DNA of 64,000 nt from Candidatus Eremiobacteria bacterium (GCA_963758295.1 CAVWUU010000004.1:1088001-1152000), one strand, 5' to 3'. Shown: positions 30,001 to 36,000, counted from the first letter of the stretch. Made by a program: the numbers.

Positions 30001-33000
30001 GCGCCGCGATGGCGCCGGGCGTCCGGTCTCGCTCTCCCACCGAAGAGCCGCCGGTGACGACGACGGCATCGCAGCGGTCGAGCCCGGCGCGTAAGCCCGC
30101 TTCCAGCGCCCCGGGTTCGTCGTTCACCGTCGGCAAGTGGACCGCGGCAGCGCCCATGGCGAGCAGCGTTCCGGCGACGGCATAACGGTTTGAATCGCGG
30201 ATTTGCCCCAGACGCGGATAAGCTGCGACCGCGATCAATTCGTCGCCGCTCGACAGCACGCCGATCGACGGCCTCCGGAAGACGGACACTTCAGCCAAAC
30301 CGAGCGTTGCGAGTACGCCGAGCTCCGGACCGCGTATGCGCCGGCCCGGCTGCAGTACCGGCTCCCCGCCGCGCATGTCGTGCGCGCGCCGATTCACATT
30401 TTCACCCGGCTCCGTCGGCCCGACCGAAACCACTCCGTTGCGTAACTGCGCTTCCTCGATGGGCACCACGGTATCGGCACCCTCGGGAACGACGGCGCCG
30501 GTTGGAATGGCGAGCGCCGTTCCGGAAACGAGCGCCGCAGGCCACGCGCTGCCCATTGCAATCTCGCCGGCGACACGCAAGCTTTGCGCTTCTTTGCGCG
30601 CTGCCAGCGCAAAGCCGTCCATGGCGGAACGCGGCGCATCGGGATAGTCGCGGTCGGCGTGGACACGTCGCGCCAGGACGCGCCCGTGCGCCGCATCAAT
30701 GGAGACCGTTTCAATACCGGGTGCGGCGAGCGTGACGCGCTGAAAAAATGCCGCTATCGCATCTGCGGGCGACAAAAGATTTTCTTCTAAGAAGCCGAAG
30801 CCGCGCTGTTCCATGCTCGATATCGTTGCTTTACGTCGCGATCCCGATCGTTTTAGGCACTCCGCCCAACGTCGGGGAATCGACCCGTCTTTTGTCGATG
30901 AAGTTCTGCGTCTCGATACGGAGTACCGCTCGGCGCTAAACGCGGTTGAAACGGCGAAAGCCGAAAAGAACCGGCTCTCGGCAGAAATCGGCAAAGCGCC
31001 GGATAAAGCCGCCGCTGCGCGCGAGTTGAAACCGCAACTCGACGCATTCGCCGCGAAGATCGCCGAACACGAAACGCGCGCAAAAGAGCTGGCGCCGGAT
31101 GCACCCGGATCCCCTCTGCGCGGGCTGCTGGAGAATACGCCGAACGTGCTGGACGATTCGGTCCCCGACGGCAATGATTCCGAGGACAACGTTCAGGTAC
31201 GCGCGTGGGGAGAACCCCGCCGTTTCGATTTCGAGCCGAAACCGCACTGGGAATTGGGCGAAGCGCTCGACATCTTAGATTTCGAGCGCGCGGCCAAACT
31301 TTCGGGTAGCCGTTTCGCGGTCCTGAAAGGGAAAGGCGCGCGCTTGTCGCGTGCAATCGCGCAATTTTTTCTCGACCGCGCCGTCGATCGCGGCTACACG
31401 GAAATCGACCCGCCGTATCTCGTTACGCGCGATACCATGTGGCGCACGGGACAACTTACCAAGTTTTCCGACGCGATGTTCCAAGATCAAGACGCCGATC
31501 TTTTCATGATTCCAACGGCTGAAGTGCCGCTGACCGCGCTGCATGGCGAAGAAATTCTCAGCGCCGCCGAACTGCCGCGGCGATACACGGCGTACTCTCC
31601 GTGTTTTCGTAAAGAAGCCGGCGCGGCCGGAAAAGATACGCGCGGACTCGTGCGCCAGCATCAGTTCGAAAAAGTCGAACTCGTATGGCTCTCGTCGCCC
31701 GAGTCGTCGTTTGACAACTTGGAAACGCTCGCCGGGAATGCCGGGAGTTTACTCGAGGAGTTGGGACTGGCGCATCGCGTGATGCTGCTGTGCGCGGGCG
31801 ACACCGGTTTCAACGCCGCGAAAACTTACGATTTAGAAGTGTGGCTGCCGACGGCGCAAACGTATCGCGAAATCAGTTCCTGTTCCGACTGCACCGACTT
31901 TCAAGCGCGTCGCGCGAACCTGCGATTCCGGCGCGACGCGAAAGCCAAACCGGAGTTCGTGCACACGCTAAACGGCTCGGGGCTCGCGGTGGGGCGAACG
32001 CTCCTCGCAATCATGGAGAATTACCAAGAAGTCGACGGGAGCATTACCGTTCCCCAGGCGCTGCGCCCTTATACCGGCTTCCACCGGATCACTCGGTCTT
32101 AAGGCGTCCCAACGCGGTGGAAAGCGCGTCGACGGCGTTCGACCGTTCCGGGATCACTTTGCCGGCCGGAAAGAACGCTTCGACGCGAATCACCGTGTGT
32201 GTTTCGTCCACCGGCTCGAACGAACAGCGAATGCGCTCGTTATTGATGAGCCCGAAACCCGCTTCGATCAGCCTGCCGGTCCGGTCGTCAACGTAAACGT
32301 TCGCCCCGAGCGTCCCGTCGATTTCTTTCAGGCATAGCTCGTAGGCGGCGCCGAAGCCGAGCGGAACTTCCACGTTCCGGTGCGGCCGCAGGCCCACGCG
32401 CGACGAGGTTTCCGGACGAAGCCACTTCAGCAAAAACGACATTATTTTAGAATCCACCGTCTTGCATCACGAATTCCTTCATGCTATAGTCGCCTCTAAC
32501 ATGTTCGCCCAGCACGCCACCGTTTCGTATTATTACGGCCGCTTCAATCGGAGCCGGCCCGGTGCGCCATTGCCTTAAGCGAACTCCATCGCCAAATGCA
32601 AAAGCCGCCTCGCCGACGCGAGGCGGTTTTTTTCTTCCCTCAGCTCCAAGAAATCGAGGACTCCAATGCAAAGCGCCCACGCCGTTCAGCCCAGTTCGGA
32701 TCTCGAAGCCTTTAGGCTCGAGGTTGCGCAAACGATCGAAAAGCACCCGATCGTGCGCGAAAACCGCTACACGCGCTGGTTTGCAAACGGAGAAGCGACG
32801 ATCGAACAGCTTCGAGCTTTCACGGTTCAGTTTTCCGTGTTCAGCCATCTCTTCATCGAAGCGCAGCTGCGCAAATGCATTAACGCCGCGAGCATGGAGA
32901 GTTACCGCGCCGGCAAAGAGATTCTCATGAATGAGCTAGGCGTGGTTTTTACGCCGAACGGCAGCATCGAAGGCGGCACGTTCCGATTTCGCGCCGGCCA

Positions 33001-36000
33001 CTTTGAATGGCTCGCCGAGTTTGCGGCGACGCTCGGCTTATCGTGGAGCGAGATCGGGAAACGGCGCCACGGCTGGGCGACGACCGTCGGATTCTGCGAC
33101 GCGCTCATGGAGTGGTACGGCTCCGACGACGAGTCCGTCGCGGCCGGCGCATCCTTCGCCATCGAGCACTGGGCCGCAGCCGGATTTTGGAAAGAGCTCA
33201 TAGCCGGCTTGAAACACCTCAAGCACACGCGCATGCCGGACATGCCGCTTGGCTTCTGGACCTGGCACGACGCGCTCGAAGATCAACACGCCGCGCATAC
33301 GGACGATGAATTGGCGGCGGCGTTCGCACGTGAGGACTTTTCCGCCGATCGATTTATCGCCGCCGGGACGGCCATCTTAGACGCCGTCGCGGCTTTCTGG
33401 GACGGCCTTGAGGGTCAGCGCCAGATTTCGCGCACCGTGGTGCTGCGCTCGGCCGCGTCGACGCCGCGATAGGATTGCATGACGCGATCCATCGCCGGAT
33501 TGGTGACGCCGAACCAAAGATGTTCATTCTTGAAGTGATGCCAGAGGTGGTACTTCTTCATGTACCGGCCCATGGCGGTCTTCGGAACGAACGGCACGTG
33601 CGCAACGTAGTGAACCCACTCGTAAAATGCGAGGCCAAGGAACGTCCCGAAAATCAACGAGAGCGCAATCCCGACGTCGCGTGCGATCGCGAAGTACAAC
33701 GCGAAATACGCGAGCCCGGTCGGAATAACGAACCACCAAGGCAAAAACAGCAGTTCGAGTTTCGGGGGGTCGATGTGATGGTCGTAATGCAGACGATGCT
33801 GCAGCTTGAGAATCCAGTTCGCCTTCGAGGGCCGGGCGTGGAAGAGAAAGCGATGTGTCGAGTACTCCGACGTGAAGAATACGAGCGCCCCGACGAGCGC
33901 AGCGAACGGCGCAAACGGAAAAGCGTGCTCCGCAAAGCTTGCGGCCAGAACTGCGAGCGCGCCGAAAAGCAGCGCGTTGCTGCCATGTCTGAAGAACGCC
34001 GCTATCACGCCGGCGTCCGGATCAAATCGAGGAGTCCCTGACGGTCTAAGTAGCGGATGTGTCCACGTTCGCGTTTGAGAAGACCGCGAAGCTCGAGCTC
34101 CGCGATCGCGCGTGCGGCAACTTCTTTCACCGTGCCTGCCGCGGCCGCGATTTGCGACTGCGTGAGGTTCGGCAACGGCGCTGTTGCCGGCGCAAGACCC
34201 TTCTCGGCAACGGCGTATTGGACAAGCACGCCGGCAATTCTAGAGAGGATCGGCTGCGTCGATTGCGATGACAGCATTTCGACCAGCAGGCGCGCGCGCT
34301 GCGCACCAATCCGAGCCAGGGAGACGAAGACGTCCGGATGCATTGCTGCCGCGTTCCGAACGGCTTCGTACGGGATGCGAAAGAAACGAGCCGTTTTGCT
34401 GAGCACGATAGTGCGCCCAAGCGTCCGCCCGTTATCGAAAAACTCCGTTTCACCGAAGATCTCACCCGCGGCGATTTCGTAGAAAATCCGATTGCGCGAG
34501 GCGGATCCGGATGCGAGTGCGAGCGTTCCTTCGACGACCATGCCGATCGCGGGCGATTCGGAATTTTCCGGCGCGATCGTATTTCCACGGCGGACCGTGT
34601 GCACCGTCGCCGCGTTCGCCAGCGCGTGCAACGCCAGCTCCGGAAGGTCGCAGAAGACCGGCGACCGGCCTAGCAACGCGGATTGCGAGGTATCGACGCC
34701 CCCTTTCGGGCGCCGCAGAGTTACGTGCCACTCTTCTGCGCCGACGCGATGCGGTGCGAGCAACAACTCACCCTGGCGGCTCTGCTGCAAGCTGGCAGTC
34801 AGTCCACGGGGTTCATTCTCGGTTACGACAGTGAGCATTTCACCGTCGGTGAGGCGATCGAACGCCTCGAAGACGGCGCTCGGGCGATCCCAAACCGGCA
34901 GTCCGCGCAAATCGATACGAGCCATTTGAAGCATTACGACGATTTCTCGGCCTAATTCTTCCTCTACTGCCGCTGTTTCATGGGCGGCGGCAGCTTATCG
35001 GGCGGAACGAGTTCGGCCGGATTTTTCATGGCTTTCCACTTCTTGTCGGGGCCCGGCGGTAGTTTGTCCATGTGCTTGAGGAACAGGGACACTTCCCACA
35101 ACTGCGTGTCACTTAGCGAGTTGCTGAAACTGGGCATGCCGGTAAGACGAATGCCGTGCCTAACCTTCCAATACGTTTCCCCTTCCGGGTCGTCTTCGAC
35201 ACCATGTTTCGGAAGCAACGGCGCTTTCTGGTAAAGCCCGAAGCCGATATTGGAAGGCCGGGCGTCCGAGGCGCCGTGACAAACGATGCAGTTGTCGCCG
35301 TAAATTTTGATGCCGTCTTCAAGCGTCGCATCGTTCAATGCTACGGGAGGCTGCGTTTTCGGCGCTTCACGATCGATCGTTGCGCGCAGCGAGGAGCCCG
35401 CGGCCCAACGTTCGAGTTTTCCGGGCCGGGCGTCGGCGTTTGCCGGGATCAACGTGCCGGTTGTTACGCCGATGTAGGCACCGGCTGCTAGAACCAGCAA
35501 TGTAACGACGATTCCGAGGATAAATCCCTTCACGATTGCTTCCTCCGTGGGCGAGGCAAGATTCACTTTCCGCACAATTGTTCCCGCGCAAACATTTTTC
35601 GAGGCCAGCACTATGACTACCGCAAAAGCGCAGTTTCCCGACGAACAGTCCGCGGACGGCGCGTTCGAGCGCCAGGGCGATGCCTTTCGCGACTGGGTAA
35701 CGGCGGATGGCAGTTCAGGGTTCCCCGCCGAGCCGAACCGTTACCGGCTCTACGTTTCTTACGCGTGTCCGTGGGCGCATCGCACCCTTATCGTTCGGGC
35801 GCTCAAAGGCTTGCAAAAAGCCATCGACGTAGCGGTCATGGATCCGGTTCGCGACGAACGCGGATGGCATCACGGCGATTTTTTCTTGAGCGAGCTTTAT
35901 ACTGCGAGTGATCCGGCCTATGATGCGCGCGTTACGGTTCCCGTTCTCTGGGACACCAAAACCAATAAAATCGTGAGCAACTCCGACGACGACATCATGC

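Follow-up and report, generated by a model that had tools for sequence, protein, structure and literature searches.

What regulates an oxidase gene that lies behind a short open reading frame (ORF) with three consecutive Tyr codons and an intrinsic terminator, and what does its product make? The question arises for a 268-aa heme-oxygenase-like diiron oxidase (HDO) of a Candidatus Eremiobacteria bacterium, encoded within the 64,000-nucleotide stretch of DNA that was analysed (hereafter the window). The best explanation, to which we assign a probability of roughly 0.6, is that the leader is a tyrosine-responsive attenuator and that the enzyme supplies tyrosine through 4-hydroxylation of phenylalanine or phenylpyruvate.

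Organization of the HDO locus

The initial annotation had described a promoter, a 25-codon ORF and an intrinsic terminator ahead of the HDO gene, and every element was found where it had been placed (Table 1), except that the leader ATG lies at 32501 instead of 32502. TTGCAT and TATAGT are separated by 17 nt, and the latter is classed as an extended −10 because TGc precedes it. The promoter claim stood in part: both hexamers are present, but the −35 shares only 3/6 positions with the consensus, and a generic promoter scan of positions 31500–34500 returned no promoter-like site and so did not call this one. A TAnnnT motif lies 6–14 nt (mode 10) 5′ of the leader ATG in 66 of 67 related leaders; here the ATG is 10 nt 3′ of the −10 and no Shine–Dalgarno sequence precedes it. 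Judging from the position of the −10, transcription would begin a few bases 5′ of the ATG and the leader mRNA is probably close to leaderless. The gene upstream of the leader is divergently oriented, leaving no other gene for the terminator to end.

The whole 3.03-Mb genome was scanned for short ORFs that contain a triplet of one residue and end ahead of a terminator; among aromatic residues, only this YYY and one WWW were found. Tyr accounts for 2.4% of codons in the genome's ORFs of at least 300 aa, and the combination of Tyr run and terminator exceeds chance expectation. Only one copy of the terminator core is present in the genome.

The HDO belongs to no named family, as had been thought. 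Pfam gave only Haem_oxygenas_2 at 24.8 bits, under the cut-off of 28.9, NCBIfam gave no match, and no PDB chain matched at the level of sequence. The best Foldseek match of its AlphaFold model (mean pLDDT 78.5) was CtCADD (8va9; TM 0.64, 18% identity). The neighbouring genes include no conserved reductase partner.

Table 1. Features of the HDO leader and gene (window coordinates)
Feature	Position	Strand	Remarks
−35-like hexamer TTGCAT	32462..32467	+	Read from sequence; 3/6 match to TTGACA
Extended −10, TGcTATAGT	32482..32490	+	Read from sequence; TATAGT at 32485–32490
Leader ORF, 25 codons plus stop, MFAQHATVSYYYGRFNRSRPGAPLP	32501..32578	+	Begins MFAQHATVSYYYGRF
Putative regulatory Tyr codons TAT TAT TAC	32528..32536	+	
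Region 1, 5′ half of predicted hairpin P1 (GGCCGCTTC)	32537..32545	+	MFE folds
Region 2, 3′ half of P1 (32550–32559) and predicted antiterminator 5′ strand	32550..32573	+	Antiterminator segments CGGC 32555–58, GGTG 32561–64, GC 32566–67, TTGC 32570–73
Apical hairpin GCGA..TCGC, just past the leader stop	32579..32592	+	Tip of the predicted antiterminator stem
Region 3, GCAA + GCCGCC + GCCG	32598..32615	+	Predicted to pair with region 2; comprises terminator flank, 5′ arm and first loop bases
Intrinsic terminator, 13-bp stem, loop CGAC, T7	32601..32633	+	5′ arm 32601–32613, 3′ arm 32618–32630, T7 32627–32633
Shine–Dalgarno GAGGA of HDO gene	32656..32660	+	Read from sequence
HDO gene, 268 aa, heme-oxygenase-like diiron oxidase, no named family	32666..33472	+	

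Conservation of the leader and its alternative RNA pairings

The leader was compared across 80 loci and the window, 81 sources in total; four of them had too little upstream DNA, leaving 77 usable. The short ORF and terminator are kept at 67 of these, and the run of 3–6 Tyr codons ascribed to the relatives was borne out at 55 (three Tyr, n = 16; four, n = 23; five, n = 12; six, n = 4). At two further loci the cluster is interrupted (YYSY, YYPYY), and in one clade of ten loci Tyr codons are only scattered (AYLIGSYQYRS). With 3–6 Tyr codons per leader, TAT and TAC vary synonymously (176 and 123 occurrences, respectively, versus 35% TAT in long ORFs of this genome). Both ORF and terminator are absent at the other ten loci, all outside the Eremiobacterota (seven Acidimicrobiia, one archaeon, one Planctomycetota and one Methylomicrobium). 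Between the leader stop and the terminator 5′ arm there is a median of 23 nt (range 18–41), close to the 23.5 nt reported initially.

An antiterminator had not been recognized at first; we located a predicted one in 67/67 loci. Here, a segment 16–34 nt beyond the Tyr run pairs, always in the same register, with the 5′ arm and loop of the terminator, and the alternative partner of that segment is the stretch that a ribosome stalled at the Tyr codons would cover. The RNA was folded from 10 nt beyond the last Tyr codon through the terminator loop, and the MFE structure of all 67 loci paired the 5′ arm with the leader segment, involving at least 70% of arm bases in 60 of them. Over the 67 loci the energies were −18.5 to −31.6 kcal/mol, versus −17.8 to −29.6 kcal/mol for the terminator hairpins alone, and with the upstream part shuffled as reference the median z was −2.59. 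The full-length MFE structure left the terminator intact and region 2 paired upstream, again in 67/67 loci.

Compensatory changes were observed at three anchored positions among 63 distinct sequences. The first is C-G in 55 and U-A in 8, the second G-C in 15, G-U in 10 and A-U in 15, and the third C-G in 45, U-G in 6 and U-A in 5. The main clade carries GUCGGC/GCCGAC and a second clade AUCGGU/ACCGAU, and one leader (L047) combines a changed terminator with a correspondingly changed region 2. The structure derived from another leader (L011) pairs 71.5% of cells in an alignment of 56 leaders, versus 29–51% when slid. The terminator core is nearly invariant across 56 aligned leaders, and conservation of its arm and loop (CGAY) is explained by the second pairing with region 2. 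The apical hairpin is kept though its sequence varies by clade (CGAAC/GTTCG, GCGA/TCGC, TAGCG/CGCTA).

The antiterminator predicted at these 67 loci and its covariation strengthen the earlier reading of a tyrosine-sensing attenuator. The leader is very probably a ribosome-mediated transcription attenuator that senses charged tRNA-Tyr ahead of a stand-alone HDO gene. With Tyr-tRNA plentiful, the ribosome would reach the stop codon and mask region 2; once it had departed, region 1 would pair with region 2, and in either state the terminator would form and the transcript end at T7. With Tyr-tRNA scarce, the ribosome would stall at the Tyr codons with a footprint expected to cover region 1, leaving region 2 free to form the antiterminator with the 5′ arm and loop of the terminator as these emerged; RNA polymerase would continue into the HDO gene. 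By this design, HDO would be made under tyrosine starvation. When a stalled ribosome was combined with a complete transcript, the terminator remained the MFE structure in 65/67 loci (−35.0 versus −24.6 kcal/mol in the window). Because the terminator is thermodynamically favoured even under stall, read-through would have to depend on kinetics, as in classical attenuators.

Distribution of HDO and of tyrosine biosynthesis genes

HDO is carried by 37 of 201 genomes of the phylum, all within one family. Among the 114 genomes of this family, 7 have HDO and TyrA, 30 HDO only, 58 TyrA only and 19 neither; the corresponding numbers for one genus of 44 genomes are 6, 16, 18 and 4. The anticorrelation within the family is strong, and it supports the proposal that HDO responds to tyrosine supply and takes the place of TyrA, although Fisher tests overstate the association because related genomes are not independent. 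Complementarity is incomplete: HDO is absent from 19 of the 49 TyrA-less family genomes, 10 of which still have CM_1, and in two of the seven genomes with both HDO and aroH-tyrA the HDO match is partial or weak. An AroH-type chorismate mutase is present in all 65 TyrA genomes, and CM_2 was found in 2/113 family genomes. TyrA, CM_1 and PDT are all absent from 28 of the 37 HDO genomes. A profile search of the genome studied here (rated 82% complete, although in 6 contigs) found none of PDH_N, PDT, CM_1, CM_2 and Biopterin_H. Among the HDO hosts are soil bacteria that lack the usual tyrosine-making genes.

The gene neighbourhood differs in Acidimicrobiia, where an AsnC-type regulator, HDO and HPPD are arranged together at 7/7 loci, with HPPD following HDO in one operon, and a class II DAHP synthase lies near this module in 2/7. 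All five HDO-carrying Acidimicrobiia genomes that were searched also encode TyrA; thus, the HDO family is not simply a TyrA replacement.

Candidate reactions of HDO

We consider it likely, from the regulatory design and the phyletic pattern, that HDO provides tyrosine to lineages from which the aroH (chorismate mutase)-tyrA operon has been lost. Since these lineages have no known enzymes for prephenate, the most likely reaction would be O2-dependent para-hydroxylation, converting either imported phenylalanine to tyrosine or phenylpyruvate to 4-hydroxyphenylpyruvate; the assignment as a phenylalanine or phenylpyruvate 4-hydroxylase is tentative. One genome (G118) has chorismate mutase, PDT and HDO with no TyrA above cut-off, a gene set that fits a route from Phe to Tyr. 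If this assignment is true, HDO would be an analogue of phenylalanine hydroxylase that needs no pterin. The pterin-dependent enzyme PhhA (Pfam Biopterin_H), whose gene is linked to tyrosine catabolism, resembles HDO in the proposed reaction and in the connection with HPPD and tyrosine metabolism, but its fold and cofactor are unrelated, and Biopterin_H was not found in the family (0/113) or in HDO-carrying Acidimicrobiia (0/5). The available part of a 2026 review of HDOs lists no aromatic C-hydroxylase among the known members.

The attenuator could instead sense tyrosine while HDO does something else, such as destroying an analogue that blocks charging of tRNA-Tyr, or making pABA like CADD. 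The nearest folds are indeed the pABA synthases CtCADD and NePabS, self-sacrificing members of the HDO superfamily, and a CADD-like protein (8va9, 8vag, 1rcw; TM 0.64–0.66, probability 1.00), which share the helical fold and a tyrosine-related substrate chemistry, and the 7 genomes with both HDO and TyrA and 19 with neither would be accommodated. However, identity to these structures is only 18–20%. CADD consumes tyrosine, whereas the HDO gene appears wired to switch on when tyrosine is short, and inducing a tyrosine-consuming enzyme during tyrosine starvation would make no sense. The genome also has two PabB/TrpE-like genes of its own (both under the pabB cut-off), and complementarity with aroH-tyrA together with the HPPD operon points to metabolism of Tyr or 4-hydroxyphenylpyruvate. 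We therefore regard such a function as unlikely.

The initial annotation had offered prephenate or arogenate, or else phenylalanine, as substrate. While its attenuator and the link to tyrosine are supported and phenylalanine remains a candidate, oxidative decarboxylation of prephenate or arogenate to 4-hydroxyphenylpyruvate or tyrosine now appears improbable. This O2-dependent reaction would suit the anticorrelation with TyrA and the HPPD and DAHP synthase neighbours in Acidimicrobiia, and UndA and BesC are described in the accessible portion of the HDO review as catalysing oxidative decarboxylation or C–C cleavage. Against it, 29 of the 37 HDO genomes, including that studied here, have neither CM_1 nor CM_2 and hence no known enzyme to make prephenate; the 44-genome genus, in which PDT is absent (0/44), keeps chorismate mutase exactly with TyrA and has lost it where HDO occurs alone; and the Acidimicrobiia already have TyrA.

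A one-enzyme route in which HDO rearranges and oxidatively decarboxylates chorismate to 4-hydroxyphenylpyruvate would explain why the genome retains chorismate synthase without chorismate mutase and TyrA, and would agree with the DAHP synthase beside the Acidimicrobiia module. We know of no precedent for such a route, the sequence offers no hint of it, and chorismate is required for Trp anyway, a Trp leader governing DAHP synthase in this same genome; it is a long shot.

Conservation of the leader as RNA

The short ORF might itself encode a functional Tyr-rich peptide, serving as the precursor of a RiPP or as a tyrosine donor sacrificed to the CADD-like enzyme, with the hairpin only setting the ratio of peptide to enzyme. 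The peptide looks conserved past the Tyr run (YYYYG[YR]F[DE]RSRxGxPLL), and CADD cleaves protein tyrosine according to the part of the source available. However, frameshifted leaders (L012, L048, L053 and L002/4/5) keep the downstream nucleotides while the peptide tail and stop are altered, which counts against a functional peptide. The variable residue (P/L/Q) corresponds to a single unpaired base, and the conserved stretch coincides exactly with the RNA segment that has two partners. In the second clade the peptide is unrelated yet the RNA logic is the same, the ORF lacks a Shine–Dalgarno sequence, and the Acidimicrobiia homologues have no such ORF, all of which makes a peptide function very improbable. 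A constitutive terminator or sRNA end with incidental Tyr codons would agree with the thermodynamic dominance of the terminator, but is hardly credible given the divergent upstream gene, the synonymously varying Tyr codons directly 5′ of region 1 in all 67 loci and the covarying alternative pairing.

Relation to known leaders

The logic of the classical attenuators trpL, pheL and hisL of Escherichia coli is well established: tandem codons for the amino acid being sensed within a short ORF, mutually exclusive hairpins (1:2, 2:3, 3:4) with read-through on starvation, and a stop codon placed so that the terminating ribosome masks region 2. The HDO leader is predicted to resemble them in each respect, but would use Tyr codons on an apparently leaderless mRNA and control a lone oxidase of no named family rather than a canonical biosynthetic operon. 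A review describes the same logic, in its available part, for trpL and pheL. From the text available for each of three other systems, the leaderless polycysteine ORFs of mycobacteria likewise combine single-codon runs with amino-acid-responsive attenuation of downstream genes, but sense Cys and occur in another phylum (bioRxiv 10.1101/834739); the aroR leader ahead of aroF in Corynebacterium glutamicum also has a peptide with aromatic codons (Phe-Tyr-Phe) ahead of a gene of the aromatic pathway, but has one Tyr codon and responds to Phe limitation, Tyr availability being without effect (PMC11802643); and the T-boxes that precede tyrosine genes in Firmicutes are RNA-level sensors of tRNA-Tyr charging that control a terminator, but bind uncharged tRNA directly, whereas the HDO leader would sense it through translation of Tyr codons (PMC1262725).

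No Rfam family exceeded its threshold here (Phe_leader, 15.7 bits versus a gathering score of 55), and no precedent for a Tyr leader peptide was found in Rfam or in literature searches, which leaves the claim of a first such leader plausible. In favour of the attenuator reading, the genome studied here also has a leaderless WWW leader with terminator and antiterminator ahead of a DAHP synthase. The aroH-tyrA operons of sister genomes are preceded by leaderless leaders with terminators, three of them with four Tyr and one Phe; Tyr-type leaders in this group are therefore not confined to HDO.

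A putative tyrosine leader cassette ahead of the HDO gene

The window encodes a 268-aa heme-oxygenase-like diiron oxidase (HDO) of no named family. The layout given for it in the initial annotation, in which a promoter, a leader ORF and an intrinsic terminator precede the gene, was confirmed, with all elements located in the window sequence. Two traits of leader-peptide attenuators are thereby present: a short ORF close to the promoter in which codons for a single amino acid cluster, and an intrinsic terminator between this ORF and the regulated gene, the end of its T run lying 32 nt from the HDO start codon. 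A generic promoter scan made no call on the leader promoter, so we only infer the transcription start. Among sequencing runs searched for this stretch, none of RNA was listed; the rows obtained were DNA of small share from a single soil study. Upstream of the cassette lie a divergent 122-aa ORF (orf122), for which no family match was obtained, and then serS; the downstream neighbour is convergent and belongs to the FA_hydroxylase family. Because the upstream gene is divergent and the downstream gene convergent, the terminator serves no other gene and HDO is monocistronic. Searching positions 32300-32800 against Rfam at a permissive threshold gave nothing close to the gathering score of any family. 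Throughout the window's genome, the only terminator-proximal short ORFs with an aromatic triplet were this YYY and one WWW, and the terminator core sequence occurs once.

Positions of the leader cassette, its convergent neighbours and a second leader (window coordinates unless stated otherwise)
Feature	Position	Strand	Basis or remark
-35 element TTGCAT, weak	32462-67	+	sequence reading
Extended -10 element TGcTATAGT	32482-90	+	sequence reading
Leader ATG	32501	+	10 nt past the -10 element, without Shine-Dalgarno
Leader ORF, 25 codons, MFAQHATVSYYYGRFNRSRPGAPLP then stop	from 32501	+	translation; contains YYY
Antiterminator, CGGC..GGTG.GC..TTGC with GCAA..GCCGCC..GCCG	32555-32573 with 32598-32615	+	folding
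Intrinsic terminator, 13-bp stem, loop CGAC, T7	stem 32601-32630, T7 32627-33	+	sequence, folding
Ribosome site GAGGA, then HDO gene, 268 aa	gene 32666-33472	+	sequence
197-aa FA_hydroxylase-family membrane protein and 309-aa regulator	33415-34934	-	convergent with HDO
Leaderless leader ORF MTTLRTFAWWWHLSAAFAGEARAFVMT then stop	contig C4 ~718,420-718,570; locus L083 5071 down to 4925	-	outside the window

Conservation of the leader among HDO relatives

A scan of GTDB genomes returned 80 HDO loci, which together with the window made 81 sources; four had too little upstream DNA, leaving 77 that could be evaluated. A short ORF (19-28 codons) and a terminator were found in 67 of these, which comprise all the Eremiobacterota-type sources, and both elements were missing at the ten loci from other phyla (10/10). 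Runs of 3-6 consecutive Tyr codons occur in 55 of the 67 leaders and an interrupted cluster in two, while the remaining ten, from one clade, encode an unrelated peptide (MFAPAYLIGSYQYRSASESVEPPIPVEP). In 66 of the 67 a TAnnnT box stands 6-14 nt (mode 10) ahead of the ATG. Tyrosine accounts for 18% of leader residues compared with 2.4% in the long ORFs of the window's genome, and TAT for 59% of the leader Tyr codons (176/299) compared with 35% genome-wide. In an alignment of 56 leaders the terminator stem hardly varies, and neither does its loop (CGAY), a degree of conservation that a plain terminator would not need.

Beyond the Tyr run (G[YR]F[DE]RSRxGxPLL) the leader peptide also appears conserved. 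In this part, 1-nt indels in several lineages (locus L012 relative to L010; L048, L053 and L002/4/5) alter the peptide tail and shift the stop codon while the downstream nucleotides are kept, and where the peptide varies between P, L and Q the difference traces to one unpaired base. These tail-changing indels and the placement of the P/L/Q variation at an unpaired base indicate that the constraint acts on the RNA. A reading of the ORF as a RiPP precursor or peptide substrate was rejected, since frameshifted leaders retain the RNA and not the peptide tail.

An antiterminator is predicted in one register

For each locus, we took the stretch of RNA that a ribosome stalled at the final Tyr codon would leave uncovered, as far as the end of the terminator loop, and folded it. 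RNAduplex, run with the leader against the 5′ arm and loop, identified one common partner segment in most loci, and the MFE structure was a single long hairpin at 67/67 loci, in which a segment located 16-34 nt beyond the Tyr codons (region 2) pairs with the terminator flank, 5′ arm and first loop bases (region 3). At least 70% of the 5′ arm bases are engaged in this pairing at 60 of the 67 loci. Its energy ranges from -18.5 to -31.6 kcal/mol, compared with -17.8 to -29.6 for the terminators by themselves, with a median z of -2.59 relative to shuffles. The tip of the hairpin spans the leader stop codon and is paired in all clades despite sequence differences.

Whereas the initial annotation had reported no antiterminator, one was thus found in the same register at every locus, with compensatory changes at three positions. 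Counted over 63 distinct sequences, ignoring phylogeny and using no covariance model, the first anchored position is C-G in 55 and U-A in 8, the second G-C in 15, G-U in 10 and A-U in 15, and the third C-G in 45, U-G in 6 and U-A in 5. Between clades the paired sequences differ (GUCGGC/GCCGAC in the main clade, AUCGGU/ACCGAU in the second), and locus L047, whose terminator is divergent, has a correspondingly altered region 2. When the structure derived from locus L011 was laid on the alignment, 71.5% of cells could pair compared with 29-51% when it was slid, a figure biased upward because L011 is a member of the alignment. From the MAFFT alignment, RNAalifold retrieved no more than the terminator and three pairs of P1, the hairpin of regions 1 and 2; the antiterminator came from the duplex and constrained folds.

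In the ribosome-free, full-length MFE structure of all 67 loci, region 2 is instead paired upstream with the stretch just after the Tyr codons (region 1), and the terminator is intact. Region 1 begins immediately after the Tyr run and, with an assumed footprint size, would lie inside the footprint of the stalled ribosome. Region 2 starts about 16-18 nt after the run and the stop codon falls at its 3′ edge, a spacing and placement that match the geometry of the classical attenuator model. The antiterminator, as computed, would exclude the terminator. The terminator is still the MFE structure of the full transcript in 65/67 loci, and read-through must therefore be kinetic, as in known attenuators.

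Together, sequence, structure and comparison make a putative Tyr leader-peptide attenuator ahead of HDO well supported, and by the logic of attenuation HDO would be expressed under tyrosine starvation. Our literature searches returned no Tyr-codon leader peptide. As far as the portions of these sources consulted go, the aroR leader of C. glutamicum comes closest, which contains Phe-Tyr-Phe and responds to Phe, not Tyr (PMC11802643); a 2005 comparative study places tyrosine genes under T-box regulation (PMC1262725), and leaderless poly-Cys attenuators have been reported from mycobacteria (10.1101/834739).

Fold and family of the HDO protein

The AlphaFold model of HDO (pLDDT 78.5, 10 helices) predicts an all-helical, heme-oxygenase-like fold. 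The only Pfam family reached was Haem_oxygenas_2, at 24.8 bits and so below its cut-off of 28.9, although precomputed annotation assigns PF14518 to some close relatives; an NCBIfam search with HDO gave no match. A profile of 16 relatives includes among its invariant residues H61, E65, E90, H112, E114, E167, H201, D202, E205, H208 and H211, a set of His, Glu and Asp that would be compatible with a dimetal site; H201-x3-E205-x2-H208 resembles what we take to be the ligand motif of HDO enzymes. In the protein database, 4774 relatives were found at E <= 0.001, none with an informative name and a few labelled PqqC by JGI, and the ESM Atlas yielded only generic PqqC, TenA and HDO clusters.

The best Foldseek match was CtCADD (TM 0.64-0.66, 18-20% identity), followed by a CADD-like protein, PqqC, HamA, UndA, BesC, HrmI, FlcD and PolF. 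The likeness to the self-sacrificing pABA synthase CADD is one of fold, as the profile had no meaningful match among PDB sequences, and a CADD-type role for HDO as a consumer of tyrosine is disfavoured by the regulatory logic. Excerpts of a 2026 review of HDOs list decarboxylation, C-C cleavage, N-oxygenation, rearrangements and self-sacrificial tyrosine cleavage, and these passages include no Phe-to-Tyr hydroxylase or aromatic C-hydroxylase among known HDOs (PMC13108848).

HDO genomes and the chorismate to Phe/Tyr branch

HDO was present in 37 of 201 genomes sampled from the phylum, all within one family, and its distribution was compared with that of the aromatic branch in 114 genomes of that family (113 without the window's genome).

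Co-occurrence of HDO with TyrA (PDH_N over cut-off) or the AroH-type chorismate mutase (CM_1); genomes are related and counts are not phylogeny-corrected
Partner	Genomes	Both	HDO only	Partner only	Neither
TyrA	family, 114	7	30	58	19
CM_1	family, 114	8	29	68	9
TyrA	one genus, 44	6	16	18	4

Complementarity between HDO and TyrA is incomplete (7 genomes with both and 19 with neither, of 114). The family's chorismate mutase is of the AroH type and adjoins tyrA, and is present in all 65 TyrA genomes. Among the 113 genomes, CM_2 was found in two, prephenate dehydratase (PDT) in 46, three of them HDO genomes, and the pterin-dependent hydroxylase domain Biopterin_H in none. The counts include the unpublished genome G178 (TyrA, CM_1 and PDT, no HDO), whose removal alters nothing. 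TyrA, CM_1 and PDT are all missing from 28 of the 37 HDO genomes. In the window's genome (6 contigs, rated 82% complete), chorismate synthase is present and PDH_N, PDT, CM_1, CM_2 and Biopterin_H were not found; PDH_N and Biopterin_H likewise had no match in the HDO protein. HDO would thus relate to TyrA at most as a functional replacement, and to pterin-dependent aromatic amino acid hydroxylases as an analogue, not a member.

These counts indicate that HDO lineages have lost the whole chorismate to Phe/Tyr branch. This loss argues against prephenate or arogenate, which the initial annotation had proposed as substrates besides Phe; what remains is a precursor taken up from outside, phenylalanine being the obvious candidate. 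Prephenate was rejected, as its oxidation would have no substrate in Eremiobacterota and would be redundant in TyrA-bearing Acidimicrobiia. One sampled genome, G118, has a chorismate mutase, PDT and HDO with no TyrA over cut-off, a gene set that fits a route from Phe to Tyr.

PDT is missing from every member of the 44-genome genus (0/44), although 24 of them encode both TyrA and chorismate mutase. In another genus, of 8 genomes, PDT occurs with chorismate mutase and without either TyrA or HDO.

Gene neighbourhoods of HDO

In Eremiobacterota no gene beside HDO, whether for a reductase or another partner, proved to be conserved, and contexts vary by clade. The serS/orf122/MoeA/cytochrome c neighbourhood is common to only 19-24 loci, and the FA_hydroxylase gene and the 309-aa regulator, in which DUF2249 is fused to a cNMP-binding/Crp helix-turn-helix module, each recur beside HDO in only 11. 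The leader-HDO cassette occurs in at least three unrelated neighbourhoods (Eremiobacterota loci L001-L068), and in some close relatives roughly 1.2 kb of additional DNA separates it from orf122. Such placement suggests that leader and HDO travel together, a mobility that would be in line with their patchy occurrence inside one genus.

At all seven Acidimicrobiia loci (L069-L075), a divergent AsnC/Lrp-type regulator, HDO and a same-strand HPPD gene follow one another, with a class II DAHP synthase close to this triad in L071 and L072. The five Acidimicrobiia HDO genomes scored all have TyrA (5/5), and neither Biopterin_H nor the homogentisate dioxygenase C-terminal domain (HgmA_C) was found in any of them (0/5 each). 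Here, HDO would feed a homogentisate-making module and not replace TyrA. Conversion of Phe or phenylpyruvate to Tyr or 4-hydroxyphenylpyruvate would fit both Eremiobacterota and Acidimicrobiia; deamination of tyrosine would suit Acidimicrobiia and clash with the starvation logic.

In Methylomicrobium oryzae (locus L080, 2643-5936), an HDO homologue of 48% identity lies between the genes for tryptophan 2,3-dioxygenase and indoleamine 2,3-dioxygenase, neighbours that again tie the family to aromatic amino acids. The same locus has an HPPD-like gene 3 kb upstream of the homologue and a B12-radical SAM gene downstream.

Predicted role of HDO

Three independent comparative lines, namely the regulatory signal, the complementarity with aroH-tyrA and the HPPD operon, support a role for HDO in supplying tyrosine. 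Its predicted reaction would be 4-hydroxylation of Phe or phenylpyruvate, our best inference, held at somewhat less than even odds. In the full reading, to which we assign a probability of about 0.35, the family would be a new pterin-independent diiron Phe/phenylpyruvate 4-hydroxylase that displaces the chorismate mutase-TyrA branch in Baltobacteraceae-like Eremiobacterota, its hosts would be Phe auxotrophs that make Tyr on demand as animals do, and its leader would be the first described poly-Tyr leader-peptide attenuator, on a leaderless mRNA.

If this is true, tyrosine joins the short list of amino acids with leader-peptide attenuation, on a leaderless mRNA and in a phylum known almost solely through metagenomes. 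A family of several thousand uncharacterised HDO proteins would gain a specific function, and the reactions of HDO enzymes would be extended by a new type, aromatic C-hydroxylation. Widespread soil bacteria would have given up de novo Phe/Tyr synthesis while retaining an O2-dependent enzyme that provides Tyr on demand.

Other leaders in the group

On contig C4, the second leader ORF is accompanied by a promoter (TTGACG-N17-TGgTAAGCT), by a terminator and by a similar alternative pairing; the gene for a class I DAHP synthase follows after 30 nt. This arrangement suggests a Trp attenuator that would control the shikimate entry enzyme, in a genome without the Phe/Tyr branch.

Sister genomes that keep TyrA have aroH (CM_1)-tyrA operons, and a leaderless 15-19-codon ORF with a terminator precedes these in nine of the 13 examined (L086-L088, L090, L097-L101), both being missing at the other four (L084, L085, L089, L096). 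The terminators are GC-rich and their T run abuts the aroH start, for which no canonical start codon was found in the terminator-bearing loci. The ORFs begin MW or MR; three contain four Tyr and one Phe, for example MWSLGSYGYSCYYFRLRGR, and the others have 0-3 Tyr, some being Trp-rich (MWTMWTWMANRRIAEHW).
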